Shown: positions 6,775 to 49,000, numbered from the stretch's first letter. The stretch is 64,000 bases of DNA from an uncultured Acidobacteriota bacterium (GCA_963723965.1 CAVRSV010000016.1:36923-100922), one strand, 5' to 3'. A program made the numbers and translations. The notes: generated by a model from the letters alone, not told the origin.

Positions 6775-7542
6775 TCAGCGCTTGGGGTGCCCGAAGCCGG
6801 TCACGACATACGTGCCGCTGCGGGCATCTTCCCGCAGCCCGATCAGCTGGTGTTTTTCGGCGGCCTCGAGCAGCTCCGAAAACGTCCGAAATCCGTAGCG
6901 CGACTCCGTGAACGCGGGGTCCTTCCGCTTCATCGTCTGTTTGACCAGGGAGGAGTGGAGAACGTCGATGTTCTCCCTCATCATGGCGTTGACGGTTTCG
7001 ATCAGGAGCTGGAAGGCGGGTCGGCCTTCTTTGGGGATCTTGGAAGTCAGTTGAGGCGGCTTGCTCACGCCCCCGGACAGGTCATCATAGAAAATGAACT
7101 CGTCGCAGTTTTCGATCAGGAGCGCGGAGGCGGAGTCCTTGGTAGCCAGCCCGATGACGTATTTGCCGTTCTCTTTGAGCTTCGAGACGAGGGGCGAGAA
7201 ATCGCTGTCCCCGGAGAGCAGGGCGAAGATGTTGATATGTGATTTGTTGTAGCACAAATCCATGGCGTCGACGCACATCCGGATATCCGCCGAGTTCTTG
7301 CCCGTCTGAGAGCGCTTCGGGATATCGATGATCTCGAAGGCGGCGTTGTGCAGTTCCTGCTTTTGTTCCGCGAATCGGCTCCAGTCGCAGTAGGCTTTCT
7401 TGACGACGATCTTGCCTTTCTCAACGAGTCGCTCGAGCACCAGTCCGATCTGGAACTTGGTCCGGGAGCGGCTCTTCTCGAAACCGATGGCAAGGTTTTC
7501 GAAATCGAGGAAAACGGCGAGGGTCTGTTCCTGATCGGCCAC
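6775..7542 (-). CDS. NYN (LabA-like PIN nuclease) domain protein with C-terminal OST-HTH/LOTUS RNA-binding domain
   Basis: 255 aa. LAVFLDFENL...KAYCDWSRF...LLSGDSDFSPLV is the NYN signature. C-terminal segment QLLIETVNAMMRENIDVLHSSLVKQTMKRKDPAFTESRYGFRTFSELL resembles OST-HTH. GTG start. Confidence 0.8.
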   Translation of the reverse strand: MADQEQTLAVFLDFENLAIGFEKSRSRTKFQIGLVLERLVEKGKIVVKKAYCDWSRFAEQKQELHNAAFEIIDIPKRSQTGKNSADIRMCVDAMDLCYNKSHINIFALLSGDSDFSPLVSKLKENGKYVIGLATKDSASALLIENCDEFIFYDDLSGGVSKPPQLTSKIPKEGRPAFQLLIETVNAMMRENIDVLHSSLVKQTMKRKDPAFTESRYGFRTFSELLEAAEKHQLIGLREDARSGTYVVTGFGHPKR

Positions 7543-7740
7543 GAAGCCAGCCTAACACACTGCAATCATTAGGGGGAGAGATCTTTCGGCGAGAGTCGTC
7601 CAGGCAATTCGCCGGGAATGTCGGCCAGGCATCCCCGCCGATCGAGTCCGCCGAGGAACCGGCGAACCCGGACGACATTGCTGCGACAGGCGCCGGCCGG
7701 TGTCTCCGGTGGCCCCGAGGGGCCGGCAACAGCGGCACGC

Positions 7741-8478
7741 TCAGTCACCGAACAGGCACGAGTGGATCGGCGAGCCCGGTTCGACCACCTGCAACGCTCT
7801 GCGGAAATAGATCTTGCGGCCCGACTGCCGGTGGAAATCCAGGAGTTGCTGCATGGCATCCGGTGCGAACTGTGATTTGTACTGCGAGATCGCCTCGAGC
7901 GACCGGTTCAGCTCCTCGTCGGTCACCTCGATGACGGTGTTGAGGAAGCGGTCGGCGACCCAGGCGAGCTCGCGTCCCGTGGCCTGGAAGAGCCGACGTG
8001 CCATGGCGGCGGTGAAAACCAGGAAGTAGAGGCGAACGTCGGACCGTTCTTCCTTCTGGAGGAGCTCGGTGACGAGACAGCTGATGCCCCGGTGGTCCGG
8101 GTGTCCGGTGATCCCGTCCGGACCGAAACTCAGCACCACGTCCGGCCGGAGCCTCAGCAGGATCTCCTGGAGCCGATTGCGGAGGTCGCCCTGCTGCGGG
8201 CCCAGCACTTCCTTGTCGACGAAGTCGAGCAGCATCGGGGGCTCGATGCGCAGAATCTCGCAGACCCGCCGCAGTTCCTCCCTGCGGACAGCGGCCAGCT
8301 CGACGGGGTCGGTGATTCCCGTGTGGGTCCGGAATCCTTTCTGCCCGGGTGTGGCGCAGACCAGGTGCACCCGGACCCCGCGTGCGGCGTAATGGGTCAG
8401 GACGGAACCCATCCCCATGTCGTCATCGGGATGGGCCGTGACCGCCAGCAGCTTCTTTCCTTCCAGTGATGTCGCCAG
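7741..8478 (-). CDS. PIG-L/LmbE-family N-acetylglucosaminyl deacetylase (BshB/MshB-like); 5' end uncertain
   Basis: Motif KKLLAVTAHPDDDMGMGSVLTHYAARG...VCATPG is PIG-L. The long N-terminal extension in the ORF track is not protein-like. AAGGAGGT RBS sits 5 nt before an in-frame CTG at 8478, with no ATG or GTG nearby, so a non-canonical start is likely. Confidence 0.65.
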   Translation of the reverse strand: MATSLEGKKLLAVTAHPDDDMGMGSVLTHYAARGVRVHLVCATPGQKGFRTHTGITDPVELAAVRREELRRVCEILRIEPPMLLDFVDKEVLGPQQGDLRNRLQEILLRLRPDVVLSFGPDGITGHPDHRGISCLVTELLQKEERSDVRLYFLVFTAAMARRLFQATGRELAWVADRFLNTVIEVTDEELNRSLEAISQYKSQFAPDAMQQLLDFHRQSGRKIYFRRALQVVEPGSPIHSCLFGD

Positions 8479-22189: not shown

Positions 22190-22640
22190 GAAGGCGGGGC
22201 AACCTCAGGGCGCCTACAGTTTCGAGTTTCGGGTTTCGAGTTTCGAGGGCGTGTTGCCCAAATCCTCCCGAGGTGGTCACAATCGTGCCACCCGGTCGTC
22301 GAGACCTGCCGAACCGATTCCACGCAAAGACGCAGAGTACGCCAAGCCGCCGCCCCCAGAGAATTCCTTTGCGGTGTTGCGTGAGATCAAGCCACCGAAA
22401 CCTCGCTCCGAGGGGGACGTACGCACTGATCCGAGGCAACGGCCATCCGGGCAACACCCCCCGAAACTCGAAACCAGGAACCCGAAACTCGGAACCCGTT
22501 CTCCCGACCTGAAACCCGAAACGCCAAAGGACCAACGCCGAAGGGAAATGTGCGAAGCGCCAGCTCGAAACTCGGAACCGGGAACTCGGAATCAACTGGG
22601 CACTTTCCCGTTTGACATCGCAAACCGATTCCCACATTGT
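22190..22640. repeat. Family-B MITE-like element copy 2 (TIRs 22244-22262 and 22443-22462; core has an internal deletion) flanked by CGAAACT-type 7-mer micro-tandems
   Basis: gggcgtgttgcccaaat ... gagaattcctttgcggtgttgcgtgagatcaagccaccga ... gggcaacacccccc, with gtttcgagtttcgggtttcgag arrays on both sides. Confidence 0.65.
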
Positions 22641-22666
22641 CTTTCCTAATCGACGAGGGGGGAAAC

Positions 22667-24082
22667 ATGCGCATTCGATTCGGACTTTTGGTTCTGCTCT
22701 TGTCCGCCTGGGGGGGATGTCAACAGGCCGTTGTGGAAACCACGGAGTCGCTGCCGAACTTCGTGATCATCTTCGCCGACGATCTGGGCTACGGCGATCT
22801 GGATATCTACGGCCACTCGACGATCCGCACCCCGCGGCTCGACCGAATGGCGGAGGAGGGGCAGAAGTGGACCCAGTTCTATGTGGGCGCTCCTCTGTGT
22901 ACTCCCTCTCGCGCGGCCCTGCTGACGGGAAGACTACCGATTCGAAGCGGCATGTGCTCGGACCAGCGGGGAGTGCTGTTTCCGGATTCGGGCGGCGGGC
23001 TCCCGGCCAACGAAGTGACCCTCGCGGAGGCGCTGAAGTCCAAGGGGTATGCGACGGCCTGTATCGGTAAATGGCACCTGGGACATCTGCCGCAGTTCCT
23101 TCCGACCCACAACGGTTTCGACTACTATTTCGGCATTCCCTACTCGAACGACATGGACCGGACGGCCGACTCTCCCGCCGGCATGGCGGCATTTCTGGAT
23201 CCGAAGGTGGAGTACTGGAACGTGCCCCTGATGCGCAACGAAGAGATCATCGAGCGGCCCGCCGAACAGCACACCATCACGAAGCGCTACACGGAGGAGG
23301 CCTGCAACTTCATCCGCAGCCATGGGGACGGACCCTTCTTCGTCTACCTGGCCCATAACCTGCCGCACGTACCCCTGTTCGCCTCCCAAGATTTCAGCGA
23401 GACGAGCCTGCGCGGTCTCTACGGCGATGTCGTCCAGGAGATCGACTGGAGCGTGGGCCAGGTCCTGGACACGCTGACAGCGGAGCACCTGGAGAGGAAC
23501 ACGGTGGTGCTGTTCACGAGCGACAACGGTCCCTGGTTGACCTATGACGAGCAGGGCGGTTCGGCCGGACTGTTGCGGGGCGGGAAGGGAAGCACTTGGG
23601 AAGGAGGGATGCGCGAACCTACGATCTTCTGGGGGCCCGGACTCGTGAAGCCCGGCGTCGTGATGGGCCTGGGCGCCACCATGGATGTTCTGCCGACCTT
23701 TCTGAACCTGGCGGGAGTCGATCTCCCGGCCGACCGTGTCCTGGACGGCTCCGATCTGTCCCGGACTCTTCGCGAGGGCGCGCCTTCTCCCCGGCGGGTC
23801 GTTTTCTACTATCGGGGAACGGAGATCTGGGCGGCGCGGCAGGGGCCCTTCAAGGCGCATTTCAAGACCCGGTCGGGCTTCGGGACCGATCCGGCCGTGG
23901 TCCACGACCCTCCGCTCCTCTTCCATCTCGAGCACGATCCCTCCGAGAAGTACGATGTCGCCGACCAGTACCCGGAGGTCATCGAGCAGATCAGGCAGGC
24001 GGTTGACGAACAGCGCCGGAGCGTCCAGCCCGTCCCGGATCAACTGGCCATCCCGTTGCCCGCCGCGGCTGAGGGTAGCTGA
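22667..24082 (+). CDS. Arylsulfatase (Cys-type, formylglycine-dependent sulfatase), lipoprotein-type signal peptide
   Basis: Sulfatase signature C-T-P-S-R-AALLTGR and GKWHLG. Signal LLVLLLSAWGGC. RBS GAGGGGGGAAAC before ATG 22667. Confidence 0.9.
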   Translation: MRIRFGLLVLLLSAWGGCQQAVVETTESLPNFVIIFADDLGYGDLDIYGHSTIRTPRLDRMAEEGQKWTQFYVGAPLCTPSRAALLTGRLPIRSGMCSDQRGVLFPDSGGGLPANEVTLAEALKSKGYATACIGKWHLGHLPQFLPTHNGFDYYFGIPYSNDMDRTADSPAGMAAFLDPKVEYWNVPLMRNEEIIERPAEQHTITKRYTEEACNFIRSHGDGPFFVYLAHNLPHVPLFASQDFSETSLRGLYGDVVQEIDWSVGQVLDTLTAEHLERNTVVLFTSDNGPWLTYDEQGGSAGLLRGGKGSTWEGGMREPTIFWGPGLVKPGVVMGLGATMDVLPTFLNLAGVDLPADRVLDGSDLSRTLREGAPSPRRVVFYYRGTEIWAARQGPFKAHFKTRSGFGTDPAVVHDPPLLFHLEHDPSEKYDVADQYPEVIEQIRQAVDEQRRSVQPVPDQLAIPLPAAAEGS

Positions 24083-24086
24083 AGTC

Positions 24087-25404
24087 ATGACCAGGCAACG
24101 ACTCGATTCCGACCCTGCGCTTCCCAGAAAGCCCATCGACCGGTTGCTGCGGCCGCTGGAACGCTTCCTCCATGTGGAAGCCGCCAGTGGAGTGGTGCTG
24201 CTCCTCTGCACCGTTCTCGCTCTGGCCCTGGCCAATTCGCCGCTGGGCGATTCCTATGAAGCGATCTGGCAGACCAAGATCGGCTTTCAGCTGGGTGATT
24301 TCCAGATGGTGCACAAGCTGCGCCACTGGATCAACGACGGCCTGATGGTGATCTTCTTCTTCGTCATCGGCCTCGAGGTCAAACGCGAACTGGTGCAGGG
24401 GGAGCTTCGCGAACTGCGCCGCTCGACGCTGCCCCTATTGGCCGCCCTCGGAGGGATGGTCGTGCCGGCTGCGATCTTTCTCGGGCTGCAGGCCGGGACG
24501 CCCGCAGCGGCGGGGTGGGGCATCCCCATGGCGACCGACATCGCCTTCGTTGTGGGCTGCATGGCTTTGCTGGGTTCCCGGGTTCCACATGGATTGCGGG
24601 TCCTGATTCTCACCCTCGCCATCGCAGACGACATCGGCGCCATTCTCGTCATCGCCGTCGGCTACACCGAGGAGCTGCTGTTCGGAATTTTGATCGTCGG
24701 TCTCCTGCTGACGGCGTGCGTTCTGCTGTTCGAGCGTCTCGGAGTTCGGAGCATGACGGTCTACGCGCTGCTCGGACTCGGGATCTGGTACTGCTTCCAC
24801 GAATCGGGAGTTCACGCCACGATTGCCGGCGTGATCCTGGGACTGCTGACCCCAGCCGAGGCCTATCTGGACACCTCCGTTCTCGGGCAGTTCCTGAAGA
24901 AAGTGGGTGGCAGTTTTTCACGGAGAAGAGGATGCGCCGCTCAACAAAGTGGGACGGGTGAAGGCCGTGCGGCAGTTGAGCCGGGAGGCGGTCTCCCCTC
25001 TGAGCTACCTCGAGGACGCGCTCCATCCCTGGGTCGGCTTCGTGATCATGCCGGTCTTCGCCCTGGCCAACGCCGGCGTCGAATTCAGTGCGGGGGATCT
25101 GGCCAGTCCGGTGGCGCTCGCGGTGGCACTGGGCCTTCTGCTCGGCAAACCGGTCGGCATCGTTCTCTTCAGCTGGGTTGCCGTTCGCGCCGGAATTGCG
25201 GCCCTGCCCTCCGGTGTCAACTGGCGAATCCTGACCGGGGGGGCCTTGTTGGCCGGGATCGGCTTTACCATGGCCCTGTTCATCGCGGGCCTCGCTCTGG
25301 AAGGCGATCTGCTCTCCGCGTCCAAGGTCGGAATCCTGGTTGGCTCGGCCGTCTCCGCCATGGGCGGAATGCTCATCCTGACCCGGAGCCTGAGTGCTCG
25401 CTAG
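24087..25404 (+). pseudogene. nhaA: Na+/H+ antiporter NhaA interrupted by a frameshift near 24896-24925 (T5 run)
   Basis: Frame 0 from ATG 24087 is NhaA-like up to ...GVILGLLTP. The conserved continuation ...SPLSYLEDALHPWVGFVIMPVFALANAGVEF... to the C-terminus is in frame +1 (ORF 24907..25404). The shift lies at cagtttttcac. Confidence 0.7.
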
Positions 25405-27008
25405 AACTTCGCGAAGAAGTCGTTTCCCTTGTCGTCCACCAGGATGAAGGCCGGGAAATCCTCGACTTCGATCTTCCAGATCGCTTCCATCCCCAGCTCC
25501 GGATAGTCGAGGACCTCGACGCTGCGGATCGAATCCCGGGCCAGAATCGCGGCGGGACCTCCGATGCTTCCCAGGTAGAAGCCGCCGTGGCTACGGCAGG
25601 CATCGGTCACCACCTGAGAGCGGTTTCCCTTGGCGATCATGACCATGGAGCCTCCATGGGACTGGAAGAGGTCCACATAGGGATCCATGCGCCCGGCCGT
25701 CGTCGGTCCGAAGGAGCCGGACGGCATTCCCGGCGGGGTCTTGGCCGGGCCGGCGTAATAGACCGGGTGGCGCTTGAAGTAATCGGGCAGATCTTCTCCG
25801 CGGTCCAGACGCTCCTTCAGACGGGCGTGGGCGATATCGCGAGCCACCACCATCGTTCCCTTCAGGGAAAGGCGCGTGGCCACGGGATAACGGGTCAGCT
25901 GCGCCAGAATCTCAGGCATGGGCCGGTTGAGGTCCACGGTCACCGGTTCGCCCGCTTCCTCGGCCGTCGCTTCGAGGAGCCAACGCTCCGGGTTCTCGTC
26001 CAGCTGTTCGATCCAGAGACCCTGCCGGTTGATCTTGGCTTTGACGTTGCGGTCGGCCGAGCAGGAGACGCCCATTCCGACGGGACAGGAGGCACCGTGG
26101 CGGGGAAGGCGGACTACCCGGATGTCGTGGGCGAAGTACCTGCCCCCGAACTGGGCCCCAATGCCGCTCGCTCGCGCCGCCTCCAGCAGACGGGATTCCA
26201 GGTCGTGGTCGCGAAAGGCACGGCCCAGCTCGTTGCCGCTGGCCGGCAGCGCGTCGAGGTAACCGGTGGAGGCCAGTTTGACGGTCTTCAAGCAGGCTTC
26301 GGCGCTGGTCCCTCCGATGACGAAGGCGACATGATAGGGAGGGCAGGCCGCCGTGCCCAGCGTCTTCATCTTCTCCACCAGGAACCGTTCCAGGCTCTCC
26401 GGGTTGAGGAGCGCCTTGGTCTGCTGGAACAGGTAGGTCTTATTGGCGGAACCGCCGCCCTTGGCGATGAACAGGAAATGGTATTCACCTCCGGTCGCGG
26501 CGTAGACATCGATCTGCGCCGGAAGATTGGTGCCCGAGTTCTTTTCCTCGTACAGGCTGAGGGGGACGGTCTGGGAATAACGCAGGTTTTCACCCGTGTA
26601 GGCCTCGAACACGCCGCGGCTGAGGGCTTCCCGATCGTCGCCTCCGGTCAGGACGTACTGCCCCTTCTTGGCGGAGATCGTGGCCGTTCCCGTGTCCTGG
26701 CAGAAGGGAAGCTGCCGCCCCGCGGACACGACGGCGTTCTTCAGCAGAGTCCGCGCCACGAAACGGTCGTTGTCGGATGCCTCCGGGTCCGAGAGGATCG
26801 CCGCCACCTTGGCGTTGTGGCTGGGGCGAAGGAAAAACGACACGTAGCGAAAGGCCTCGCGGGCCAGAAACGTGAGCCCCTCCGGCTCGACCTGCAGGAA
26901 TTCGGCGCCGGCGCCGCTGACGGTGCTGACGAACCGGTCGGTCAGGAATTTGTACTGAGTCTCGTCGCTTTCGAGGGGGAAGGGATCCTGATACTGGAAC
27001 GTGGCCAT
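25401..27008 (-). CDS. fumA: Class I fumarate hydratase (single-chain Fe-S hydro-lyase, FumA/FumB type)
   Basis: About 535 aa. [24 protein letters not shown]...[10 protein letters not shown]...[25 protein letters not shown] before ATG 27008 (ORF track start uses TTG). Confidence 0.9.
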
Positions 27009-27099
27009 TTCGTATCCTCTCAATCTGCAGGTTCAAGTCCAGATCCAATCTTCGACCCGACAGCCCACGGATGCAAGTCCGCAACGGTGTTCCGGACTT

Positions 27100-27620
27100 C
27101 CGAGGCTCCGCCCCCCGCTTCACCCTTTGAGCGGCTGTCTCCACCGACGCCGCAGGCGTCCCTGGAGTGCGGAAGCTCGCTTCCGCTTTCGATTCGCCCG
27201 GCGCAGCGCATACCGGCTCGCACAGCCGGGCCGCCGAGCCATCCCCGCCGAAACCCGGGGAGCACCCGCAAGCCGAGGCCTCTCCGAAGAAAGCGGCAGC
27301 AAGCTGCCGCAGTCCAAGGCGGCTTCGCCGCGGTGCCGGAGCAGCTCAGTCCGAAGCGGCTCGGCCGCACTCTTCCTCCTCCGACGCCGCAGGCGTCCTT
27401 GGAGCGCGGAAGCTTGCTTCCGCTTTCGATTCGCCCGGCGCACGCATACCGGCTCGCACAGCCGAGCCGCCGAGCCATCCCCGCCGAAGCCCGGGGAGCA
27501 CCCGCAAACCGAGGCCTCTCCGGAGAAAGCGGTAGCAAGCTACCGCAGTCCAAAGCGGCTGCGCCGCGGTGGCGGAGCAGCTCCATCCAGACCGGCCGCG
27601 CTGCAACCGGAAATGTCGGG
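27100..27620. repeat. Family-C multi-hairpin repeat, two tandem about 230-bp units
   Basis: Units 27120-27350 and 27350-27600 are about 90% identical. Each carries hairpins GCGGAAGC-tc-GCTTCCGC and GCGGCAGC-aa-GCTGCCGC. Also present at 36.7-36.96 kb and 48.65-49.0 kb. Confidence 0.8.
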
Positions 27621-27639: not shown

Positions 27640-27955
27640 GCTGAATTCCGCTCTCCCCGGAACCTCGGAACCCGGAACCTCGGAACCCGGGGGCGTGTTG
27701 CCCAAATGGCTGCGGCCTCCGATCGGCGTGCCCCCACTGGAGTGAGGTCTCGGCAGCCTGATCTCACGCGAAGCCGCGAAGTACGCCACGCCGCAAGGAG
27801 ATTCTTTGTGGGTGGCGGCTTGGCGTCCTTCTTTGCGCCGTTGCGTGGAACCAACCCGCCGTGCATTCGCCTGCCTGGCAGCGTCCGATCCAGCGAAACC
27901 CTTCCTTTTTGGGCAACACGCCCCCGGAACGCGGAACCCGAAACCGCGGGCGCCC
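27640..27955 (-). repeat. Family-B MITE-like element copy 3 (inverted orientation; TIRs 27690-27710 / 27903-27922) with GGAACC(T/C)CG micro-tandems
   Basis: gggggcgtgttgcccaaatgg ... reverse complement of the core ... tttgggcaacacgcccccgg. ggaacctcggaacccggaacctcggaaccc on the left flank. Confidence 0.7.
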
Positions 27956-28494
27956 TACTTGCGCTCGTCGTCCAACTTGCGCAGCTGGCGCAGGATCGAC
28001 AGCAGCGTCGGCTTTTCCTTCATCTGCTCCCGCAACCGCCCCATGACGGCTTCGGGGCTCCACTGATCGGCGGCCTCCTCGATCAGCTGCATGCGCCGCT
28101 GGTCGGTGCTGAATTTCTTGCGCAGGCGGACTGCATAGGCGTCCATGAGCACCTCGAGCAGCTTGTCCATCTCGCAGGGCTTGGACAGATATCCGTAGGC
28201 GCCGAGTTTGGTGCACTCCACCGCCGAGTCGATCGAGCCGTGGCCCGTCAGGATGATGACTTCCAGAAAATCGTGCTCCTGTTTGAGGATCCGCAGCACT
28301 TCCCGGCCGTCCATTCCAGGCATCTTGAGATCCAGGAGTGCCAGATCGAATTTTCCGGTACGGGCGGCCTCGATGGCGGCGGCGCCGCTGGAAGCCTTCG
28401 TCACAGCGAAATCCCTCAATTCCAGGCGTTTGCTGATGGAATCGAGGAACTTCAGTTCGTCGTCGACGATCAGCAGCTTGATTCTTTCCGTCAT
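27955..28494 (-). CDS. Response regulator, receiver domain plus short C-terminal helical tail (no DNA-binding domain)
   Basis: MTERIKLLIVDDE...DLALLDLKMPGMDG...IILTGHGS. Start placed at the internal ATG 28494. Confidence 0.8.
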   Translation of the reverse strand: MTERIKLLIVDDELKFLDSISKRLELRDFAVTKASSGAAAIEAARTGKFDLALLDLKMPGMDGREVLRILKQEHDFLEVIILTGHGSIDSAVECTKLGAYGYLSKPCEMDKLLEVLMDAYAVRLRKKFSTDQRRMQLIEEAADQWSPEAVMGRLREQMKEKPTLLSILRQLRKLDDERK

Positions 28495-28513
28495 TTCCAG
28501 GGTCTCCCGAAGG

Positions 28514-30544
28514 TTAGAAACCGATCCATTGCCAGTAGCCGTAGAACACCCAGATCCAGAGGACGAGGAACGAGAGGACCAGCATGGCCGCTCCGTGTTT
28601 GAGAAAGTCCCCCAGTGTGACCAGTTGCTCGCCCGTGACGGGATCCTTGCAGAGAGCGTAGGCGATCGCGTTGTTCGGAGTCCCGATGACCAACATGTGG
28701 GCAAAGGACGAGGCGAAGGCCGTGGCCAGACCGACCATCCAGGGATGGGTCTGGGTAATGGTCGCCATGGGGATCGTGATCGGTCCGATCGCCGAGACCG
28801 TGGCCCCGTCGCTCATGAAGTTGGTCGTCAGACCGGTGAACAGGCTGGTGGCCATGGCCAAACCCGTGCCGCTCTGCATGAAGGCCGGCAGAATTCCTAC
28901 GAACCAGTCGGCCAGGTAGAGGGCGGCTCCGGTCACGGCAAGACCCTTGCCCAGGGCGGCGGCACTGGCGTAGAGAAAGACGACGTCCCAGGGAATGGCG
29001 ACGATGTCCCTCCACCTCAACACTCGCAGTATGTTGAGCATCACGATGCAGAGAATCGCCGGTCCACCCATGCCGTACCGGTCGCTGACCGTGACCCACA
29101 GAACCACCAGCAGGATGAGGACGGGGGTGGCCCGGATCTCCAGACTGTTCATCGGGCCGATGCGCTCGGCCGCCTCGCGCACGATGGCCGACACGTTCAG
29201 GTTGCGCACGCGCAGCTTCCGTCGGAAGGCCAGGTAGAAGTATCCCCCCGCCACCAGCGCCATGACCGGAACGAATGGCAGTCCGTAGGCTACCCACTGC
29301 CCGAACGTGGGAGCCATGCCGTAGTCGCTCAGAATGGCCAGCATGACCGCGTTCCGACCGCCTGCAGCGGGCGAGCCGGGACCGCCCGAATTGCCGACGA
29401 AGCAGAGCATGAGGGCGAACAGCACCGCGAGGTGTCGGTCCTCGGAGACCCTCGAATGCCGGAGCGACGAGGCGTAGACCATCATGAACAGCGGCATCAT
29501 GAAGGCGACCAGGGCATGCTCGGAAATGAACGAGCAGGCCACGGCAAACATGGGCAGGAACAGGAAGAGCACCATGTTGAGCGACTTCACGGGCCCCAGC
29601 AGCAGAACCCCGATCCGGCGGTCGAGTCCCGTCTTGGTCATGGCCCGTGCAATCGCCAGCACGCCGAAGATGAAGATCACGGCATCTTTGGCGTAGGCGG
29701 CCGCTACCTCGTCCGGCTGCAACACGCCGAGGAAATACATCGAGACTCCGACCAGCAGGGCCGTAATGCCGATCGGGATGGCTCCCGTCGCCCAGAACAG
29801 GGCGGCTACGAGCAGGGTGGCCAGCATGACCTGGGCCCGATAGGCCGACTGGTGGGGCGTCATGGAGTACCGCGCCCTTTGCCCCTCGCTGGCCGGCGTG
29901 AGGGTTCCCACCTTGTACTTCTGGCTGTAGAAATCGGCAATGTTCTGCCCCGGAGCCATGCTCCGGTAATCGGCGTAGCCGTGGCTGAGGTCGGTGACGT
30001 TGCCTGTCTTGGGGGTCCCGACCAGCTGGAGGAGCCGCGCCGGTGCGGGCACCAACACGACGACGAGAAACAGGAGCAAACCGAGGATGATCACGCCGGG
30101 CCGGCTGTTGTGGGAGCCGACCAGCCAGGTCCGCAGCGACCGGGCCAGGTGGGGAATCTCATGCCGGGCCATGGCATGGAGCTTGGCTTCCCGGGCCGCG
30201 TCGATGGTCTGCACCAGCGTCCCGATATCGCAGGGCTTTTCCAGATAGGCGAAGGCGTCGTGCCGGCCCGTTTCCATGGCCGACTCGAGGCTGCCGTGGC
30301 CGGTCAGCATGATGACCTGGACGGCGGGCCGATAGTTCTTGAGTTCCTTGAGGACCTCGTCTCCGGTCATCCCCGGCATCTTGAGATCGAGCACGACCAC
30401 CTCGATCTCGGGATCGTTGCGGGCGATTCGGATCGCCTCTTCGCCGCTGTCCACGTCGAGGGTGTCATAGTTCCTGAGTCTGAGCCGCTTTGCCAGAGAC
30501 TGGCGGAAACCCGTCTCATCGTCGACCAAGAGTACTTTCCCCAT
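28514..30544 (-). CDS. Receiver (REC) domain fused to an ArsB/NhaD-superfamily (SLC13/DASS-like) anion permease
   Basis: N-terminus MGKVLLVDDETGF...VVLDLKMPGMTGDE...IMLTGHGS is a REC domain with the phospho-acceptor Asp context. It is followed by about 500 aa with more than 10 TM helices and glycine-rich hairpin loops (GNSGGPGSPAAGGRNA). Confidence 0.75.
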   Translation of the reverse strand: MGKVLLVDDETGFRQSLAKRLRLRNYDTLDVDSGEEAIRIARNDPEIEVVVLDLKMPGMTGDEVLKELKNYRPAVQVIMLTGHGSLESAMETGRHDAFAYLEKPCDIGTLVQTIDAAREAKLHAMARHEIPHLARSLRTWLVGSHNSRPGVIILGLLLFLVVVLVPAPARLLQLVGTPKTGNVTDLSHGYADYRSMAPGQNIADFYSQKYKVGTLTPASEGQRARYSMTPHQSAYRAQVMLATLLVAALFWATGAIPIGITALLVGVSMYFLGVLQPDEVAAAYAKDAVIFIFGVLAIARAMTKTGLDRRIGVLLLGPVKSLNMVLFLFLPMFAVACSFISEHALVAFMMPLFMMVYASSLRHSRVSEDRHLAVLFALMLCFVGNSGGPGSPAAGGRNAVMLAILSDYGMAPTFGQWVAYGLPFVPVMALVAGGYFYLAFRRKLRVRNLNVSAIVREAAERIGPMNSLEIRATPVLILLVVLWVTVSDRYGMGGPAILCIVMLNILRVLRWRDIVAIPWDVVFLYASAAALGKGLAVTGAALYLADWFVGILPAFMQSGTGLAMATSLFTGLTTNFMSDGATVSAIGPITIPMATITQTHPWMVGLATAFASSFAHMLVIGTPNNAIAYALCKDPVTGEQLVTLGDFLKHGAAMLVLSFLVLWIWVFYGYWQWIGF

Positions 30545-30619
30545 AGCCTCGCTACCCGATCCGCAGGGGCCGCCGGCTCGACCGGCCGCCGCCGTGTCCA
30601 TTTCCGATGTGAAGGAACT

Positions 30620-32320
30620 CTACGTACTCCGCCCGATGGGAAGAGTGATCGTAAACGTGCTGCCTTCGCCGAGATTGCTTTCTACGTCGATCGATCCGCC
30701 CAGGTCCTTGATGATCCCGTAACTGACCGATAGTCCCAGTCCGGTTCCTTTTCCCACCTCCTTGGTCGTATAGAAGGGTACGAAGATCTTGCCCAGCTGC
30801 TCCTGGCTCATGCCCCGGCCGGTGTCGGCCACCGAGATCTCAACCTTCGCTCCGGCCCTGCGTACCCCGACCGTGATCGTGCCCGCCCGGCCCCCGAGTG
30901 CATCCACGGCATTGTTGAGGAGGTTCAGGAGAACCTGCTGCAGCTGATTCGTGTCGGTCAAGACCGGGGGCACGTCGGCCGCGAAGTCGCGGACGATTTC
31001 GATGTTCGAGACGGCCAGTTCGGGACCGAGCAATCCGTCGAGGACCTCGTCGATGACCGTCGCCAGATCCTGGGCGCGAAGTTCCACGCTGGTCTTGCGT
31101 ACGAAGCCCAGCAGCTTGTGGGTGATATTGCGACAGCGCAGGACCGATTCCTCGATGTTGTCCAGATGGGGACGCAGCTCCTGAGCGGGAGTCGGTTCCC
31201 CGAAGGCCGGGTCCATCAGATCCTTGATCAATCCGGCTTCCTCGTTGATGACTGCCAGCGGATTGTTGATTTCATGCGCGATGCCGGCGGCCAGTTCGCC
31301 GACCGAGGCCAGCTTTGAGGCATGGGCCAGCTGGGCCTGGGCCCGATCGCTGGACTTCTGGAGCTCGACCAGCTTGTCGGCGCGACTGAAGATCATGACT
31401 GTGATCAGGCCGATGAGGACCGCCGAGAAGAGCAGCAGCGTGCGCAGCGGCCGGGCCAGGAATCCGGCCGTCGCGGAATTCTGCGGCTGGACGATCAGTG
31501 CCCAGTCGGCCTGTCTGAGCCAGGAATAGGCATAGAAGACCGAAGCGCTTCCGATTCTCACCCACTCCGCGCCGAGCCGGGGTTCGGTCGGAGGCACGAT
31601 CGCCGAGGTCTCCAGGAGCGTGCCCATGTGGGGGGTGACCAGCTGGTAATAACCCTCCTTGTTCACGATGGACAGCAGGAGCTCGTTGTCCCCCTGAAGC
31701 GATCGGATGTAGTCGTAGATTCGTTCCGGGTCGAGCGTGGCTCGCAGGATCGGCCGATCGTGCCCGGACTGACCCTTGACGGCAATCGTGAAGTGCGGTC
31801 GCTGCCGGAATCCCAGGTAGATGTCGGTGATGACGAAATCCTGGTCCGGCCGGCTGAGGGTCTGAAACCAGGATTCGGAGCTGTAGTTGCGGTTCTCGAG
31901 GGACTGGTGGGGGCCGGCGTAGGAGGCCTGGATCCCGCGGGGATCGAAGTATCCGACGTCGACGAAGGTTTCGCTGCTCTTGACCAGTTCCTGGAGGAAG
32001 CCCTGCATCGCCGTCGACGAATGGTCTTCCAGAAAGCGCGGATCGTTGACCAGGTTCCTCAGATTGACGACCCGTTCGGTCAGGAACAGGTTGAGGGTGT
32101 TCGCCTGGTTTTCCGCGATGGCCGTCAGGTGCAGACGGCGGCTTTCTGAAATCAGGCTCTGATATTCGACGGTGAAGTAGAAGACCAGAATGACGAGGGG
32201 CGCGACGTACGTGAAGAGAAGACGCAGGATCTGGCGACGCCGGAACTCCCGGTAATGCTCATCCCCGAAGGGAAGGAAGTCCGCAAGCGAGGGCCATTTG
32301 GCAGCTGACACCTTGCCCAT
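30620..32320 (-). CDS. Sensor histidine kinase with periplasmic double-Cache-like domain, HisKA and HATPase_c
   Basis: TM, about 280-aa extracytoplasmic domain, TM. H-box AHEINNPLAVI. N/G boxes LLNNAVDA...DTGRGM...GTGLGLSVS. RBS GGAAGGGG before ATG 32320. Confidence 0.85.
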   Translation of the reverse strand: MGKVSAAKWPSLADFLPFGDEHYREFRRRQILRLLFTYVAPLVILVFYFTVEYQSLISESRRLHLTAIAENQANTLNLFLTERVVNLRNLVNDPRFLEDHSSTAMQGFLQELVKSSETFVDVGYFDPRGIQASYAGPHQSLENRNYSSESWFQTLSRPDQDFVITDIYLGFRQRPHFTIAVKGQSGHDRPILRATLDPERIYDYIRSLQGDNELLLSIVNKEGYYQLVTPHMGTLLETSAIVPPTEPRLGAEWVRIGSASVFYAYSWLRQADWALIVQPQNSATAGFLARPLRTLLLFSAVLIGLITVMIFSRADKLVELQKSSDRAQAQLAHASKLASVGELAAGIAHEINNPLAVINEEAGLIKDLMDPAFGEPTPAQELRPHLDNIEESVLRCRNITHKLLGFVRKTSVELRAQDLATVIDEVLDGLLGPELAVSNIEIVRDFAADVPPVLTDTNQLQQVLLNLLNNAVDALGGRAGTITVGVRRAGAKVEISVADTGRGMSQEQLGKIFVPFYTTKEVGKGTGLGLSVSYGIIKDLGGSIDVESNLGEGSTFTITLPIGRST

Positions 32321-32439: not shown

Positions 32440-32590
32440 GCCGGGGCTCCCTGGTTCCCGAGGAGTCTGAGAGCAAGATCCACCCCCAACTCCCCTCCCC
32501 CGGTCCTCCCGGTCCTCCGGCCCTCCCGTCCTCCGCGCTCCCTCCCGTCCTCCGGTCCTCCGGTCCTCCCGTCCTCCTCCTCCCTCTCAG
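32440..32590. repeat. Pyrimidine-rich simple repeat (CCGGTCCTC)n on plus, i.e. (GAGGACCGG)n in the 5' region of the minus-strand kinase operon
   Basis: ccggtcctcccggtcctccggccctcccgtcctccgcgctccctcccgtcctccggtcctccggtcctcccgtcctcc, about 12 degenerate units. Confidence 0.85.
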
Positions 32591-33039
32591 CTCCCGATGA
32601 GCTCCCGCACCTCCGCCACCAGCTTCTCCGGATCGATCGGTTTGTCGATGAACTTTTCGGGCTTGACCAGGCCCTCCTCACGCATCTGCCGGATCGTCTT
32701 CTTGAGGCTCTCCCGGAGGCTGTCGTAGGGGCGCTCGAGAGTGTCGGCGTCGGCGCGGTTTTCGTCCTCCTCCAAAACGTCGGCGACCGCGGTCAGCATG
32801 ATCACGGGAATGTGGCGATATCGCTCGTCCTTGCGCAACTGCTTGAACAGTAGAAACCCGCTGCGCTTCGGCATCATCACATCGAGCAGGATCAGATCGG
32901 GCTGGGTCTCCTCGACTTTCTGGAATCCCTCCTCGCCGTCGCCGGCCGCGGTCGGTTCGTAGCCCCCCTCGCGCAGGGCAACCGACAGGAATTTAACGGT
33001 GTTCTCATCGTCGTCGACGACCAACACTTTCTTCGACAT
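32587..33039 (-). CDS. Single-domain response regulator (CheY-like)
   Basis: MSKKVLVVDDDENTVKF...LILLDVMMPKRSGF...IMLTAV. RBS GAGGAGGAG 4 nt before the ATG. Overlaps the upstream kinase by 32 nt. Confidence 0.8.
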   Translation of the reverse strand: MSKKVLVVDDDENTVKFLSVALREGGYEPTAAGDGEEGFQKVEETQPDLILLDVMMPKRSGFLLFKQLRKDERYRHIPVIMLTAVADVLEEDENRADADTLERPYDSLRESLKKTIRQMREEGLVKPEKFIDKPIDPEKLVAEVRELIGS

Positions 33040-34945
33040 CGATCTCCTCCTCTCTGGCCCAGGGACCTTCGATCGGCAACAGCACCCGGAAGCTGGCTCC
33101 CTGACCCGGCTTCGAGCCGACCTCGATCTTGCCGCCGTGGGCGCTGACAGCGCGAGACGCAACCGCGAGCCCCATCCCCGTGCCTTTTTCCTTCTTGGTA
33201 CTGAAGAACGGCGTGAACAGCTTGGCTCGAACCTCCTCCGTCATCCCCTCCCCGTTGTCGGTGACCATGATGCAAACGAACCGCTCGCCGCAGCGTCGGA
33301 CAGCAAGCTCCACCCGAGCTCTCTGGCCCGGGTCGTACTCCTGCCACCCGCACGCATCCAGGGAATTCGACAGGAGGTCCATCACGACGGCATGGATCAG
33401 TTCGCGGTCGCAGAGCACTTCGGGCAGCGGTTCCGCAATCTCGAGCGCCAGTTCGACGTCGTTCTCCCGGAACCTCGGTCCGCTCAGCGTATGAATCCCG
33501 CGGACGAGCTCTCCCAGGTCAGTCGGCATCAGGTCGAGCTTCCGCTCCCTGGCGAACTCCAGCATGCTGCTGGAGAGTCGAGTCATGTGGTCGATCCCCT
33601 CCTGGACCATCTCCCACCCCTCACTCAAAAGCTGCCGATCGTCCTTCGCCAGCCCCGTCTTGACCATGTAGGAACCGCCCTTCAGGACGTTCAGCAGGTT
33701 TTTGACGGAGTGCTGAATGCCGATGAGCGCCTGGCCGAGGGCCGCCATCTTCTCCGACTGCAGGAGCTGGCGTTGCAGGCGCTTCTCCCGGGTGACATCC
33801 TTGCTGATCCCGTAGGTGCCGATGGCCGTCCCGTCCGCCCGGCGCAGGCGGGACAGGGTCAGGATCACGTCCCGGATCCTCCCGTCGATCGTGCGGAAGT
33901 GGGTCTCGTAGTTCACTACGTGATCCGTGTATTCGAGCTGAGCGATGGCGACATCCCGTTCGGCGGGATCGGCAAAGAGCATCTCGATGCGCTCTCCGAT
34001 CACCTCGTCGCGCCGATAGCCGAGCGTGCGCTCGGCGCCTGCATTGAAGGTCTGGATCAGCCCCTGGGGATCGACGGTGATGATGATGTCGGCCGAATTC
34101 TCCACGATGCCTTCCAGATACTCTCGCGTGCGCTTGAGCTTTCGGAGCGTCCCCGAGAGCTGCTCCGTCATTTCGTTGAAGGCGGAGGCCAGCGATGCGA
34201 ACTCATCCGAGCCGTCGTCGTTGAAGCGGAAGTCGAAGTCGGCATTCGTCACTCGGCGGATTCCCTCGGTGAGGGTCTGGATGCGCCTGCCCACGAGGCG
34301 TTGAACCGCCCACCAGGCTGCCAGCGTGCAGAGGAGAATGGCGACGATGACGCCGATGCCCGTCTTCATCCGGTGCTGGGCCACCAGCGAGTCGACGCGC
34401 TGCAGCGAATAGTCGACCCTCAGGTAGCCGAGCGGTCGCTCGACGCCCTCGTGCGTGTGGCAGGAGGCGTTGGCGCAGCCCGCCTCGTTGTAGATGGGGG
34501 TGACGACGGCGAGTATGTTCCTCCCGTCGCCCGCCCTCCAGATGCGGTCGAGCGATCTGATGTCGGTCCGTCCCCGGTCGGCGCCGTCCGTGTGGCATCC
34601 GACACAGGGCCATGTATCCCGCGGCAGCGTGCGGGCGTCCGGTCCGTGGAAGGAGACGACGGTCTGTCCCTCATGCGCGGCCAACTGGATGTTTTCGTAG
34701 ACGGGGTTGTCCTGCGCGAGTCCGCTGACCAACTCCCGGATGCCCTCCAGATCGCGCGTTGCCATGAAGCGATGGAGACCGAGAATGAGGGTTCGCGAGT
34801 CCATTCGGGACACGTCCCGGGCAGAGGCCAGTGCTTCCCGGCGGTCGTCCAGGCTGTTGACGTAGGCGGTGACGGCCCAGACCAGCACGATCAGCGCCGA
34901 GAACAGTCCACTCAGCTTCCAGGCGACCCGGTTGCGTCCGAGCAT
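33005..34945 (-). CDS. Sensor histidine kinase with periplasmic c-type-heme-binding domain (CXXCH), HAMP, PAS, HisKA and HATPase_c
   Basis: Periplasmic segment contains CVGCH (CXXCH) and a second CANASCH (CX4CH-like). Then TM, HAMP, PAS (IITVDPQGLIQTFNAGAERTLGY), H-box, and ATP-binding DNGEGM...GTGMGLAV. Confidence 0.82.
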   Translation of the reverse strand: MLGRNRVAWKLSGLFSALIVLVWAVTAYVNSLDDRREALASARDVSRMDSRTLILGLHRFMATRDLEGIRELVSGLAQDNPVYENIQLAAHEGQTVVSFHGPDARTLPRDTWPCVGCHTDGADRGRTDIRSLDRIWRAGDGRNILAVVTPIYNEAGCANASCHTHEGVERPLGYLRVDYSLQRVDSLVAQHRMKTGIGVIVAILLCTLAAWWAVQRLVGRRIQTLTEGIRRVTNADFDFRFNDDGSDEFASLASAFNEMTEQLSGTLRKLKRTREYLEGIVENSADIIITVDPQGLIQTFNAGAERTLGYRRDEVIGERIEMLFADPAERDVAIAQLEYTDHVVNYETHFRTIDGRIRDVILTLSRLRRADGTAIGTYGISKDVTREKRLQRQLLQSEKMAALGQALIGIQHSVKNLLNVLKGGSYMVKTGLAKDDRQLLSEGWEMVQEGIDHMTRLSSSMLEFARERKLDLMPTDLGELVRGIHTLSGPRFRENDVELALEIAEPLPEVLCDRELIHAVVMDLLSNSLDACGWQEYDPGQRARVELAVRRCGERFVCIMVTDNGEGMTEEVRAKLFTPFFSTKKEKGTGMGLAVASRAVSAHGGKIEVGSKPGQGASFRVLLPIEGPWAREEEIDVEESVGRRRR

Positions 34946-36370: not shown

Positions 36371-36960
36371 CGGGATTTTCGATTTTCGATGGCCGAATTT
36401 CGATGGCCGATTTTCGATTCGAGCCGTGGCCGGCGAGGGTAATCCAGGCTTCCAGCCTGGCATGTCCAGCGGGCTTCCAGCCCGCCCGGTGCCCTTCCGG
36501 CCCGTCGGGCCAGACTCCATCGGAGGGGGATCTTCCAGAGAGAAGATCACCGCTTTCCTGAGGTTCGTCCTCAGTGGCGAATGGCCGCAACGAAGGGCCG
36601 GGTCGACCGGGAAGAGCCGGGACTCACCTGCCTGTCGGGAGGTTCGGTGGATCGGATCGCCGGACGGATCGCGAACCACGTTGTCGGAATCACTGTCGAC
36701 CACGAGGGTCCCGTGCGCTCCGTTCATGACCGCCGACTTGCGGGGCAGGCTGGAAGTGCGGGAGCTCGCTCCCGCCATCGATCCACCCCGGACGCCCATG
36801 CCGACTCGCACCGCCGGCCGGCGACCAGCCCCCGCCGAAGCCCGGGAGACCCCCCGACCGAGGCCCCTCCTCGGAAAGCGGCAGCAAGCTGCCGCCGTCG
36901 CGCGCCCACGAGCGCCGCGGCAGCGTGGCAGCTCAATCCAAAGCGGCTGCGGCACCGAAT
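36365..36960. repeat. 7-mer micro-tandem (GATTTTC/GATGGCC) followed by Family-C multi-hairpin repeat copy
   Basis: gattttcgattttcgatggccgaatttcgatggccgattttcgattcgag. Then a C-type unit with gaaagcggcagcaagctgccgcc. Confidence 0.7.
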
Positions 36961-48597: not shown

Positions 48598-49000
48598 AGA
48601 TGATCTGAGATTTACGATTTACGATTTACGATTTGGGGGCGGACCGGGAGCTGGAAGGCGTGTCTTCCCAATTCACCGGGGCCCTGGAATTCGCCTCCGA
48701 CGCCGCAGGCGCCCTTGGGGCGCGGGAGCTTGCTCCCGCTGTCGAGCCGCCCGGGACGCCCATCCCGACACGCATCGCCGGCTCGCCGACCGACTCCCGC
48801 CGAAGCCCGGGAGTACCCACGACCGAGGCCCCTCCACCGAAAGCGGCAGCAAGCTACCGCAGTCCAAGGCGGCTTCGCCGCGGTGGCGGAGCAGGTCAAT
48901 CCCAAAGCGGCTTCGCCGCGGTGGCGGAGCAGGTTAATTCCAAGGCGGCTTGGCCGCGCTGCCACAACAGTTCAATTCAAACCGTCTGCGCCGCGCGCTT
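48598..49000. repeat. GATTTAC 7-mer micro-tandem plus Family-C multi-hairpin repeat with an internal 40-bp duplication
   Basis: gatctgagatttacgatttacgatttacgatttgg. The C-unit ends with aggcggcttcgccgcggtggcggagcaggt repeated twice. Confidence 0.75.

Follow-up and report, generated by a model that had tools for sequence, protein, structure and literature searches.

A receiver domain fused to a DASS-fold permease in a two-component cassette that recurs across uncultured bacterial lineages

Two-component systems are taught as sensor-to-gene circuits; where an output other than transcription has been documented, it is an enzyme, a motor or an adaptor. A locus on the minus strand of a 64,000-nucleotide (nt) stretch of DNA from an uncultured Acidobacteriota bacterium (GCA_963723965.1 CAVRSV010000016.1:36923-100922; hereafter the window, from whose first letter positions are counted) raises the question of whether such a system can act directly on a membrane transporter. 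Here a gene for a sensor histidine kinase (HK1) is followed by one encoding a receiver domain (REC) joined to a permease of the DASS fold, and then by one for a small response regulator (REC3). The most economical reading is that these genes form a two-component cassette that is complete in itself and free of any transcription-factor output, in which a secondary transporter is the effector and transport is directly controlled by phosphorylation; we regard this reading as evenly poised. The three genes are:

30620-32320, minus strand: HK1, a sensor histidine kinase of 566 amino acids (aa), starting MGKV at 32320.
28514-30544, minus strand: the REC::DASS fusion protein, 676 aa, starting MGKVLLVDDE at 30544 (coordinates include the stop codon).
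27955-28494, minus strand: REC3, a small response regulator of 179 aa, starting MTERIKLL at 28494.

Intergenic gaps are short, 75 nt between HK1 and the fusion and 19 nt between the fusion and REC3, and the fusion start was placed at 30544 because its homologues begin MPKxLLVDDE. Open reading frames (ORFs) and Pfam matches bear out the minus-strand order given in the initial annotation of this DNA (a kinase described there as dCache-type, a receiver-permease fusion, then a receiver regulator), and its limits of 27955-32320 are exact with HK1 starting at MGKV (32320). A database protein from a metagenome-assembled genome (MAG) is 100% identical to the fusion (P0001, 'MAG: SLC13 family permease [Acidobacteriota bacterium]'), and there are at least 120 full-length homologues; the 120 best matches share 65-87% identity, are 659-680 aa long (nearly all 673-680 aa) and all contain both REC and DASS domains.

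A genome scan with one genome per species gave 159 stretches with relatives; our locus counts refer to the 80 returned of these 159 (79 non-duplicate), whose gene content we established by searching them with the window proteins (tblastn) and by clustering all of their ORFs. All 80 loci are in MAGs, assigned to Acidobacteriota, Zixibacteria, Ignavibacteria, Planctomycetota/Phycisphaerales, Desulfobacteraceae, Gemmatimonadota, Calditrichaeota, Fibrobacteria, Myxococcota/Polyangiaceae and Krumholzibacteriia, and the cassette thus recurs in about ten phyla, with the following content:

REC::DASS fusion: 79 of 79 loci, 58-87% identity to the window protein.
HK1 orthologue, upstream: 68 of 79 loci, 41-80% identity, full length with the sensor domain.
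REC3 orthologue: 68 of 79 loci, 54-87% identity, tail included.
CBS-pair protein (about 186 aa), encoded after the kinase gene and before the fusion: 61 of 79 loci, none in the window.

The dominant order, HK-CBS-REC::DASS-REC3, is intact 32 times and is found more often still if extra flanking genes are allowed; independent gene calls on one Zixibacteria and a second Acidobacteriota chromosome give the same cassette. The CBS gene is missing in the window, in its closest Acidobacteriota relatives and in some others, and tblastn found no match to it elsewhere in the 64,000 nt; an example lies at 7398-7979 of locus L001. The Desulfobacteraceae loci have no REC3 beside the fusion. No DNA-binding or enzymatic domain was found by Pfam in the core cassette genes, and conservation across phyla with no transcription-factor output is what direct control of the transporter would predict. 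Genes for sigma-54 activators lie near the cassette in 13 of the 80 loci, which fits an NtrC-type ancestry of the kinase and receivers. One of these enhancer-binding proteins (L008, 250-1869) has an XylR_N/V4R N-terminus, and in Desulfobacteraceae, for example at L062 (2116-3561), the N-terminus of the neighbouring protein gives a receiver-like tblastn match.

The first part of the fusion is a receiver domain by Pfam, alignment and structure prediction with AlphaFold2 (AF2):

30185-30544, minus strand: receiver domain, fusion aa 1-120.

It scores 81.7 bits with the Pfam Response_reg profile (gathering threshold, GA, 30.2), and its key residues are D8/D9, the phospho-acceptor D53 (codon 30386-30388), T81, the switch residue Y100, and K103-P104. 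Conservation was assessed in 78 full-length orthologues extracted from the 80 genome-scan loci: D8, D53, T81 and K103 are present in all 78, D9 in 77, and Y100 in 76, the other two having F. The N-terminal domain identified as a receiver in the initial annotation thus retains both the conserved phospho-acceptor Asp and the conserved Lys on alignment, and the domain looks catalytically competent. In the AF2 model of the fusion (61-sequence alignment; predicted local distance difference test score, pLDDT, 81.8; predicted template modelling score, pTM, 0.72) it adopts a (beta-alpha)5 fold, with five strands and five helices within aa 3-127 and an unusually long alpha5 (aa 107-127); Foldseek matches it to 3jte (TM-score 0.90) and 3crn (TM-score 0.89). 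The nearest solved receivers include Spo0F, NtrC1 (1zy2, E-value 5e-16) and DctD (1qkk, E-value 1e-10). Similarity to NtrC and DctD is confined to the receiver; neither Sigma54_activat nor HTH_8 matches the fusion or REC3.

The larger part of the fusion is a membrane domain, recognised by Pfam, alignment, AF2 and Foldseek, in which alignment to the SNT motifs of VcINDY locates the tips of two hairpins, HPin and HPout:

28517-29857, minus strand: DASS core, aa 230-676.
29516-29524, minus strand: HPin tip, S341-E342-H343.
28805-28813, minus strand: HPout tip, S578-D579-G580.

Pfam gives 121.5 bits for Na_sulph_symp (GA 27; profile positions 29-469 of 472) and 99.3 bits for CitMHS, and the membrane part matches VcINDY by sequence with an E-value of 3e-18. 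With Foldseek, the fusion model matches VcINDY and human NaS1, NaCT and NaDC3 with E-values of about 1e-14 and target-normalised TM-scores of 0.77-0.80; further matches are yeast Pho90 (8r35, E-value 1e-12) and ArsB (E-value 1.7e-8). Helix breaks in the model at aa 340-341, 387-394, 574-578 and 618-622 correspond to the hairpin tips and to the loops of transmembrane helices (TM) 5 and 10; the L5ab loop contains an invariant R397-N398 (R397 in 78 of 78 orthologues) and the L10ab loop reads G-T-P-N-N-A-I. By sequence and by predicted fold, then, the membrane part belongs to a transporter family, namely the DASS/SLC13 fold within the ArsB/NhaD (IT) superfamily.

Its earlier description as an SLC13/DASS-like permease holds for the fold and needs qualification beyond it. 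Neither SNT signature motif is present in the fusion, S-E-H and S-D-G standing in their places and being invariant in the 78 orthologues, and the score with NCBIfam TIGR00785 'dass', 169.6 bits, is below the cut-off of 198.6; no curated family model reached its own threshold with this protein. In Na+-coupled DASS transporters, the SNT motifs are where Na+ and the anionic substrate bind, at the tips of the hairpins; N151 of one such motif in VcINDY takes part in coordinating Na1 as well as the substrate (PMC13394699). The replacement of Na+-coordinating Asn by acidic residues could reflect coupling to H+ or a different, possibly cationic or zwitterionic, substrate. With these altered motifs, one should not presume that the protein handles dicarboxylates or sulfate, and the term 'anion permease' is unsafe. 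Unfused relatives of about 460-560 aa mostly have S/T/G-[E/D]-H and S-D-G too, so that the altered motifs are a trait of a wider uncharacterised clade rather than of the fusion alone. The database names of the homologues ('anion permease', 'sodium-dependent dicarboxylate transporter', even 'histidine kinase') are automatic annotations, as are those of the unfused relatives, and with so different a substrate-binding signature they probably mislead.

Two further segments precede the core, the first defined by an AF2 helix and hydropathy and the second modelled with a pLDDT of 77-94:

30017-30100, minus strand: TM1 of the DASS fold, aa 149-176.
29858-30016, minus strand: periplasmic insertion separating TM1 from TM2, about 53 aa in length (aa 177-229).

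At the sequence level, VcINDY can be aligned from about its residue 32, which we take to be near the start of its TM2, as far as the C-terminus; the extra hydrophobic helix at aa 149-176 would therefore be equivalent to DASS TM1. This assignment places the receiver in the cytoplasm, within reach of a kinase. The periplasmic insertion comprises a short helix and a beta-hairpin and includes a DFYSQKYK stretch; it is also present in unfused relatives and is the least conserved part of the protein. Mean identities to the window protein across the 78 orthologues are 0.60 for REC, 0.61 for the linker between REC and TM1, 0.51 for TM1, 0.39 for the insertion and 0.71 for the core.

HK1 matches the Pfam profiles HisKA (40.1 bits) and HATPase_c (97.7 bits), and two TM segments (about aa 29-57 and 287-318) lie on either side of a periplasmic region of about 230 aa. 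This region resembles dCache_1 over nearly the whole profile (positions 10-239 of 240; E-value 9e-9), at 35.7 bits, below the GA of 45; dCache_1 matches are also precomputed for the HK1 orthologues in L001 and L002. The phospho-acceptor H349 lies within an invariant HEINNPL, and an E-x-x-N motif is present. H-E-x-x-N and E-x-x-N motifs mark bifunctional kinase/phosphatases, which suggests that HK1 is also a phosphatase, in which case a pure phosphate sink would be less necessary. HK1 contains no receiver or histidine phosphotransfer (HPt) domain, and its core is closest to AtoS/ZraS-type partners of NtrC-family regulators. Mean conservation in 50 orthologues is 0.62 for the periplasmic region and 0.70 for the catalytic core; as the sensor domain is nearly as well conserved as the core across phyla, the same ligand is probably sensed throughout. 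Comparison of the sensor domain with Protein Data Bank (PDB) sequences gave no meaningful match, and a single-sequence AF2 model of HK1 (pLDDT 38) was unusable.

REC3 has a Response_reg match of 99.9 bits and no other significant Pfam match, and its receiver is complete, with D11/D12, D55 (codon 28330-28332), T and K. The receiver is followed by a helical-looking tail, about 45-60 aa in length and without a match to any family, with the consensus ...ARLKKKF..D..RM......LGILRELRKLDDE in 61 orthologues; the tail in the window carries a 17-aa insertion, the orthologues being mostly 162 aa long. The third gene had been taken initially for a REC-only regulator and phospho-sink, and neither description survives intact, since a C-terminal tail conserved in 61 orthologues is an addition to the receiver and does not fit a pure sink. 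Single-domain regulators work through contacts with other proteins, inhibit kinases or serve as sinks (PMC12471899). REC3 resembles such regulators (CheY, DivK and FixT/Osp) but has the extra conserved tail; it could be a sink, a feedback inhibitor of the kinase like FixT/Osp, or an adaptor acting through the tail, and a phospho-sink role is a matter of speculation. Within a genome, REC3 and the fused receiver are 44% identical. F13 and R20 are common to the pair in 100% of genomes, and L21 in over 90%; mapped to Spo0F, we take these residues to lie on the alpha1 kinase-docking helix, a pattern that fits a single kinase acting on both receivers. An analysis of covariation between them yielded four mildly co-varying columns and is weakly informative, there being too little diversity.

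The same arrangement can be read in the opposite direction, with the DASS-fold domain as input. Ligand occupancy or cycling of the membrane domain would then tune the gain or loss of phosphate by its receiver, the fusion would be a substrate-dependent competitor or scaffold for HK1, and phosphorylated REC3 would be the real output, using its conserved tail to act on a target encoded elsewhere. The conserved tail of REC3 is typical of a partner-binding element, both receivers look like substrates of one kinase, the non-canonical S-E-H/S-D-G site leaves carrier function unproven, and there are precedents for sensing in the transporter co-sensors and SAC1. However, the kinase in the window already has a conserved periplasmic sensor domain of its own, and the elevator machinery is kept at carrier-like stringency (the hairpins, the L5ab and L10ab loops, and 71% identity in the core). 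Plain unfused permeases with the same motifs exist, and the Desulfobacteraceae cassettes with no REC3 beside the fusion indicate that REC3 cannot be an obligatory output. We consider this sensing role rather unlikely, although it is the main alternative.

How the receiver is joined to the membrane domain bears on a second alternative, in which receiver phosphorylation controls dimer assembly, localisation or clustering, or the proteolytic stability of the permease, for example by an RssB-like adaptor logic. The junction is:

30101-30184, minus strand: linker, aa 121-148, continuing alpha5 to about aa 127 and then reading ...EIPH...W140-L-x-G143-S-H-N-S-R148.

E129, W140, G143 and R148 are invariant in the alignment, with P149-G150 next, at the start of TM1. 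Indels in the linker are few and small, and 51 of the 78 orthologues are exactly 677 aa long. With the linker as conserved as the receiver and so rarely changed in length, its conservation argues for functional coupling, and not for a passive tether. Receivers commonly act through their oligomeric state, DASS proteins are obligate dimers, and the low confidence of the linker in the AF2 model (pLDDT 61-68) would suit control of assembly or stability. Yet a strongly conserved linker, with few small indels before TM1, points to mechanical or allosteric coupling and not to a loose tether, and the cassette contains no protease or adaptor gene; we judge this alternative improbable.

A third alternative is that the fused receiver is a pseudo-receiver, structural or constitutive and no longer phosphorylated, with the kinase signalling to REC3 only. 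Degenerate receivers do occur among REC-DASS fusions. Further fusion clades at 31-45% identity are represented by P0123, P0127, P0143, P0124, P0139 and P0156, and the distant P0123 has N/C/E at the positions of D8/D9/D53, the Glu being possibly phosphomimetic. In the family of the window protein, by contrast, D8, D53, T81 and K103 in 78 of 78 and Y100 in 76 of 78 form a pattern that is unexpected for a pseudo-receiver, and we think this explanation very improbable. Elsewhere among these clades, P0156, in which Pfam places REC at aa 4-114 and the start of DASS at aa 141, appears to have no periplasmic insert, and its second motif has S-N. Finally, an artefactual fusion (through a frameshift, an assembly error or read-through from one gene into its neighbour) is excluded, as the continuous ORF is seen again in the 120 best homologues and in independent assemblies of 78 genomes, with a conserved junction and no stop codons.

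We return to direct control of transport by phosphorylation, a role that we infer from the architecture; the identity of the phosphotransfer partners, the direction of control (activation or inhibition), the coupling route and the substrate we likewise infer. On binding of a periplasmic ligand to its conserved dCache-like domain, HK1 would autophosphorylate on H349, and the phosphoryl group would move to D53 of the receiver; the permease would be a dimeric DASS-fold protein of the elevator type, with this receiver as its cytoplasmic N-terminus. As in NtrC1/DctD-type receivers, the T81/Y100 switch may alter the alpha4-beta5-alpha5 face and the receiver dimer, here beneath the DASS dimer, and the conserved linker may relay this change to TM1 and the scaffold, or may dock on and release, or block and release, the mobile transport domain. 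Transport would thereby be switched within seconds, with no need for gene expression. REC3, a paralogous tailed receiver, would be a second substrate of HK1, serving as a phosphoryl competitor or as an adaptor or feedback element, and the CBS-pair protein found in most genomes would add a further, probably nucleotide-dependent, input.

Coupling of this kind is supported by a cassette with no other effector, by the conserved linker, and by a metagenome protein of 692 aa (P0128) that has a universal stress protein (Usp) domain where REC would be and 47% identity over query aa 148-675, TM1 and the insert included; this looks like one regulatory domain exchanged for another at the same N-terminal position. 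Pho90, with its SPX domain, is a precedent for a DASS protein that is preceded by a regulatory domain. Several observations weigh on the other side. The linker, through which the signal would pass, is modelled at low confidence; the conserved tail of REC3 suggests a downstream partner of its own, so that the true output perhaps lies outside the cassette; and the conserved transporter residues would be equally expected if the membrane domain were a ligand sensor and not a carrier. HK1 has the E-x-x-N motif, sequence alone assigns neither receiver to it, and a second kinase/receiver pair (HK2 and REC0, see below) lies directly upstream in the window. All of the homologues found are from uncultured MAGs, and hence come with no phenotype.

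Several known systems share part of this design. VcINDY and the SLC13 proteins (NaDC, NaCT, NaS1; TC 2.A.47) are alike in fold, in the helix breaks of the hairpins, TM5 and TM10, and in the L10ab T-P-x-N-A-I; in contrast to them the fusion lacks the SNT motifs, falls below the TIGR00785 cut-off, and has the extra periplasmic insertion of about 53 aa and an N-terminal receiver. The yeast proteins Pho87, Pho90 and Pho91 also have a cytoplasmic regulatory domain N-terminal to a DASS-fold carrier, and in Pho90 this SPX domain regulates transport. The domain in the fusion, however, is a phosphoryl-transfer receiver and not an inositol-pyrophosphate-binding SPX domain, its host is prokaryotic, and Pho90 has no detectable match to the fusion by sequence. 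DctB/DctD-type systems, which control the gene of a dicarboxylate carrier, likewise combine a dCache or dCache-like kinase with an NtrC1/DctD-like receiver, whereas the cassette has a transporter in place of the AAA+ and helix-turn-helix (HTH) outputs, so that control would fall on the carrier protein and not on its gene. In CheB, PleD, RssB and PorX, as proposed for the fusion, a receiver controls an attached or bound effector by way of its phosphorylation, the attached effector here being an integral-membrane secondary transporter. DctA and DcuB co-sense with DcuS, CbrA has an SLC5 transporter fold fused to a kinase, and the DASS-like SAC1 of Chlamydomonas is regarded as a sensor; in all of these the transporter fold is on the kinase or input side, whereas here it is on the receiver or output side.

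Non-transcriptional outputs of response regulators and regulatory domains on transporters are thus already known, and the proteins themselves have been deposited under generic names, with an architecture visible in domain databases. The literature searched, in a search that was incomplete and is not proof of absence, contains no description of a REC-DASS or other REC-transporter fusion, in agreement with the initial view that this mode of control is rarely documented; the word 'transporter' does not occur in a 2025 review of variations in two-component systems (PMC12471899). We tentatively suggest, with somewhat less than even confidence, that this is the first secondary active transporter recognised as the output of a response regulator, in a horizontally spread cassette free of transcription factors, that phosphorylation of the Asp would switch an elevator carrier, and that the S-E-H/S-D-G/R397 site would accommodate a non-classical substrate or H+ in place of Na+. 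If so, the cassette, with a transporter as its sole effector-type domain, would let an extracellular signal act rapidly on the flux of a solute, and it would offer a natural model of a soluble switch domain controlling an elevator-type carrier, with a bearing on SPX-regulated Pho90 and on human SLC13 pharmacology. The family is widespread in uncultured lineages including Zixibacteria, Ignavibacteria, Acidobacteriota, Planctomycetota and Desulfobacterales, and its interest lies in a cassette that is widespread, strongly conserved, without a transcription-factor output and directly testable.

The second kinase/receiver pair of the window lies directly upstream of HK1:

33005-34945, minus strand: HK2, with HAMP-PAS-HisKA-HATPase_c domains, overlapping the start of REC0 by about 35 nt.
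32587-33039, minus strand: REC0, whose Pfam receiver match covers only profile positions 1-81, apparently owing to an insertion of about 35 aa before beta5.

HK2 and REC0 were considered as part of the system and rejected as core, as they are adjacent to the cassette only in the closest Acidobacteriota (L003 and L066), where they are convergent and downstream.

On the other side of the cassette, reading of the translations suggests three putative neighbours:

25401-27023, minus strand: class I fumarate hydratase-like gene.
ORF ending at 25404, plus strand: NhaA-like Na+/H+ antiporter.
22637-24082, plus strand: sulfatase.

The fumarate hydratase was rejected as a hint of a dicarboxylate substrate, because about 900 bp of repeats lie between it and the cassette and it is not a conserved neighbour. 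An NhaA-like gene flanks the cassette in three loci, including L003. Intergenic repeats resembling repetitive extragenic palindromes (REP-like) are present at 27139-27583, 36758-36895 and 48722-48860. Directly downstream of the cassette, a 236-bp repeat unit occurs in 1.9 tandem copies (93% match) and is built around the hairpin GCGGAAGCTYGCTTCCGC, which has 10 matches in the window at two or fewer mismatches where 0.01 would be expected by chance.

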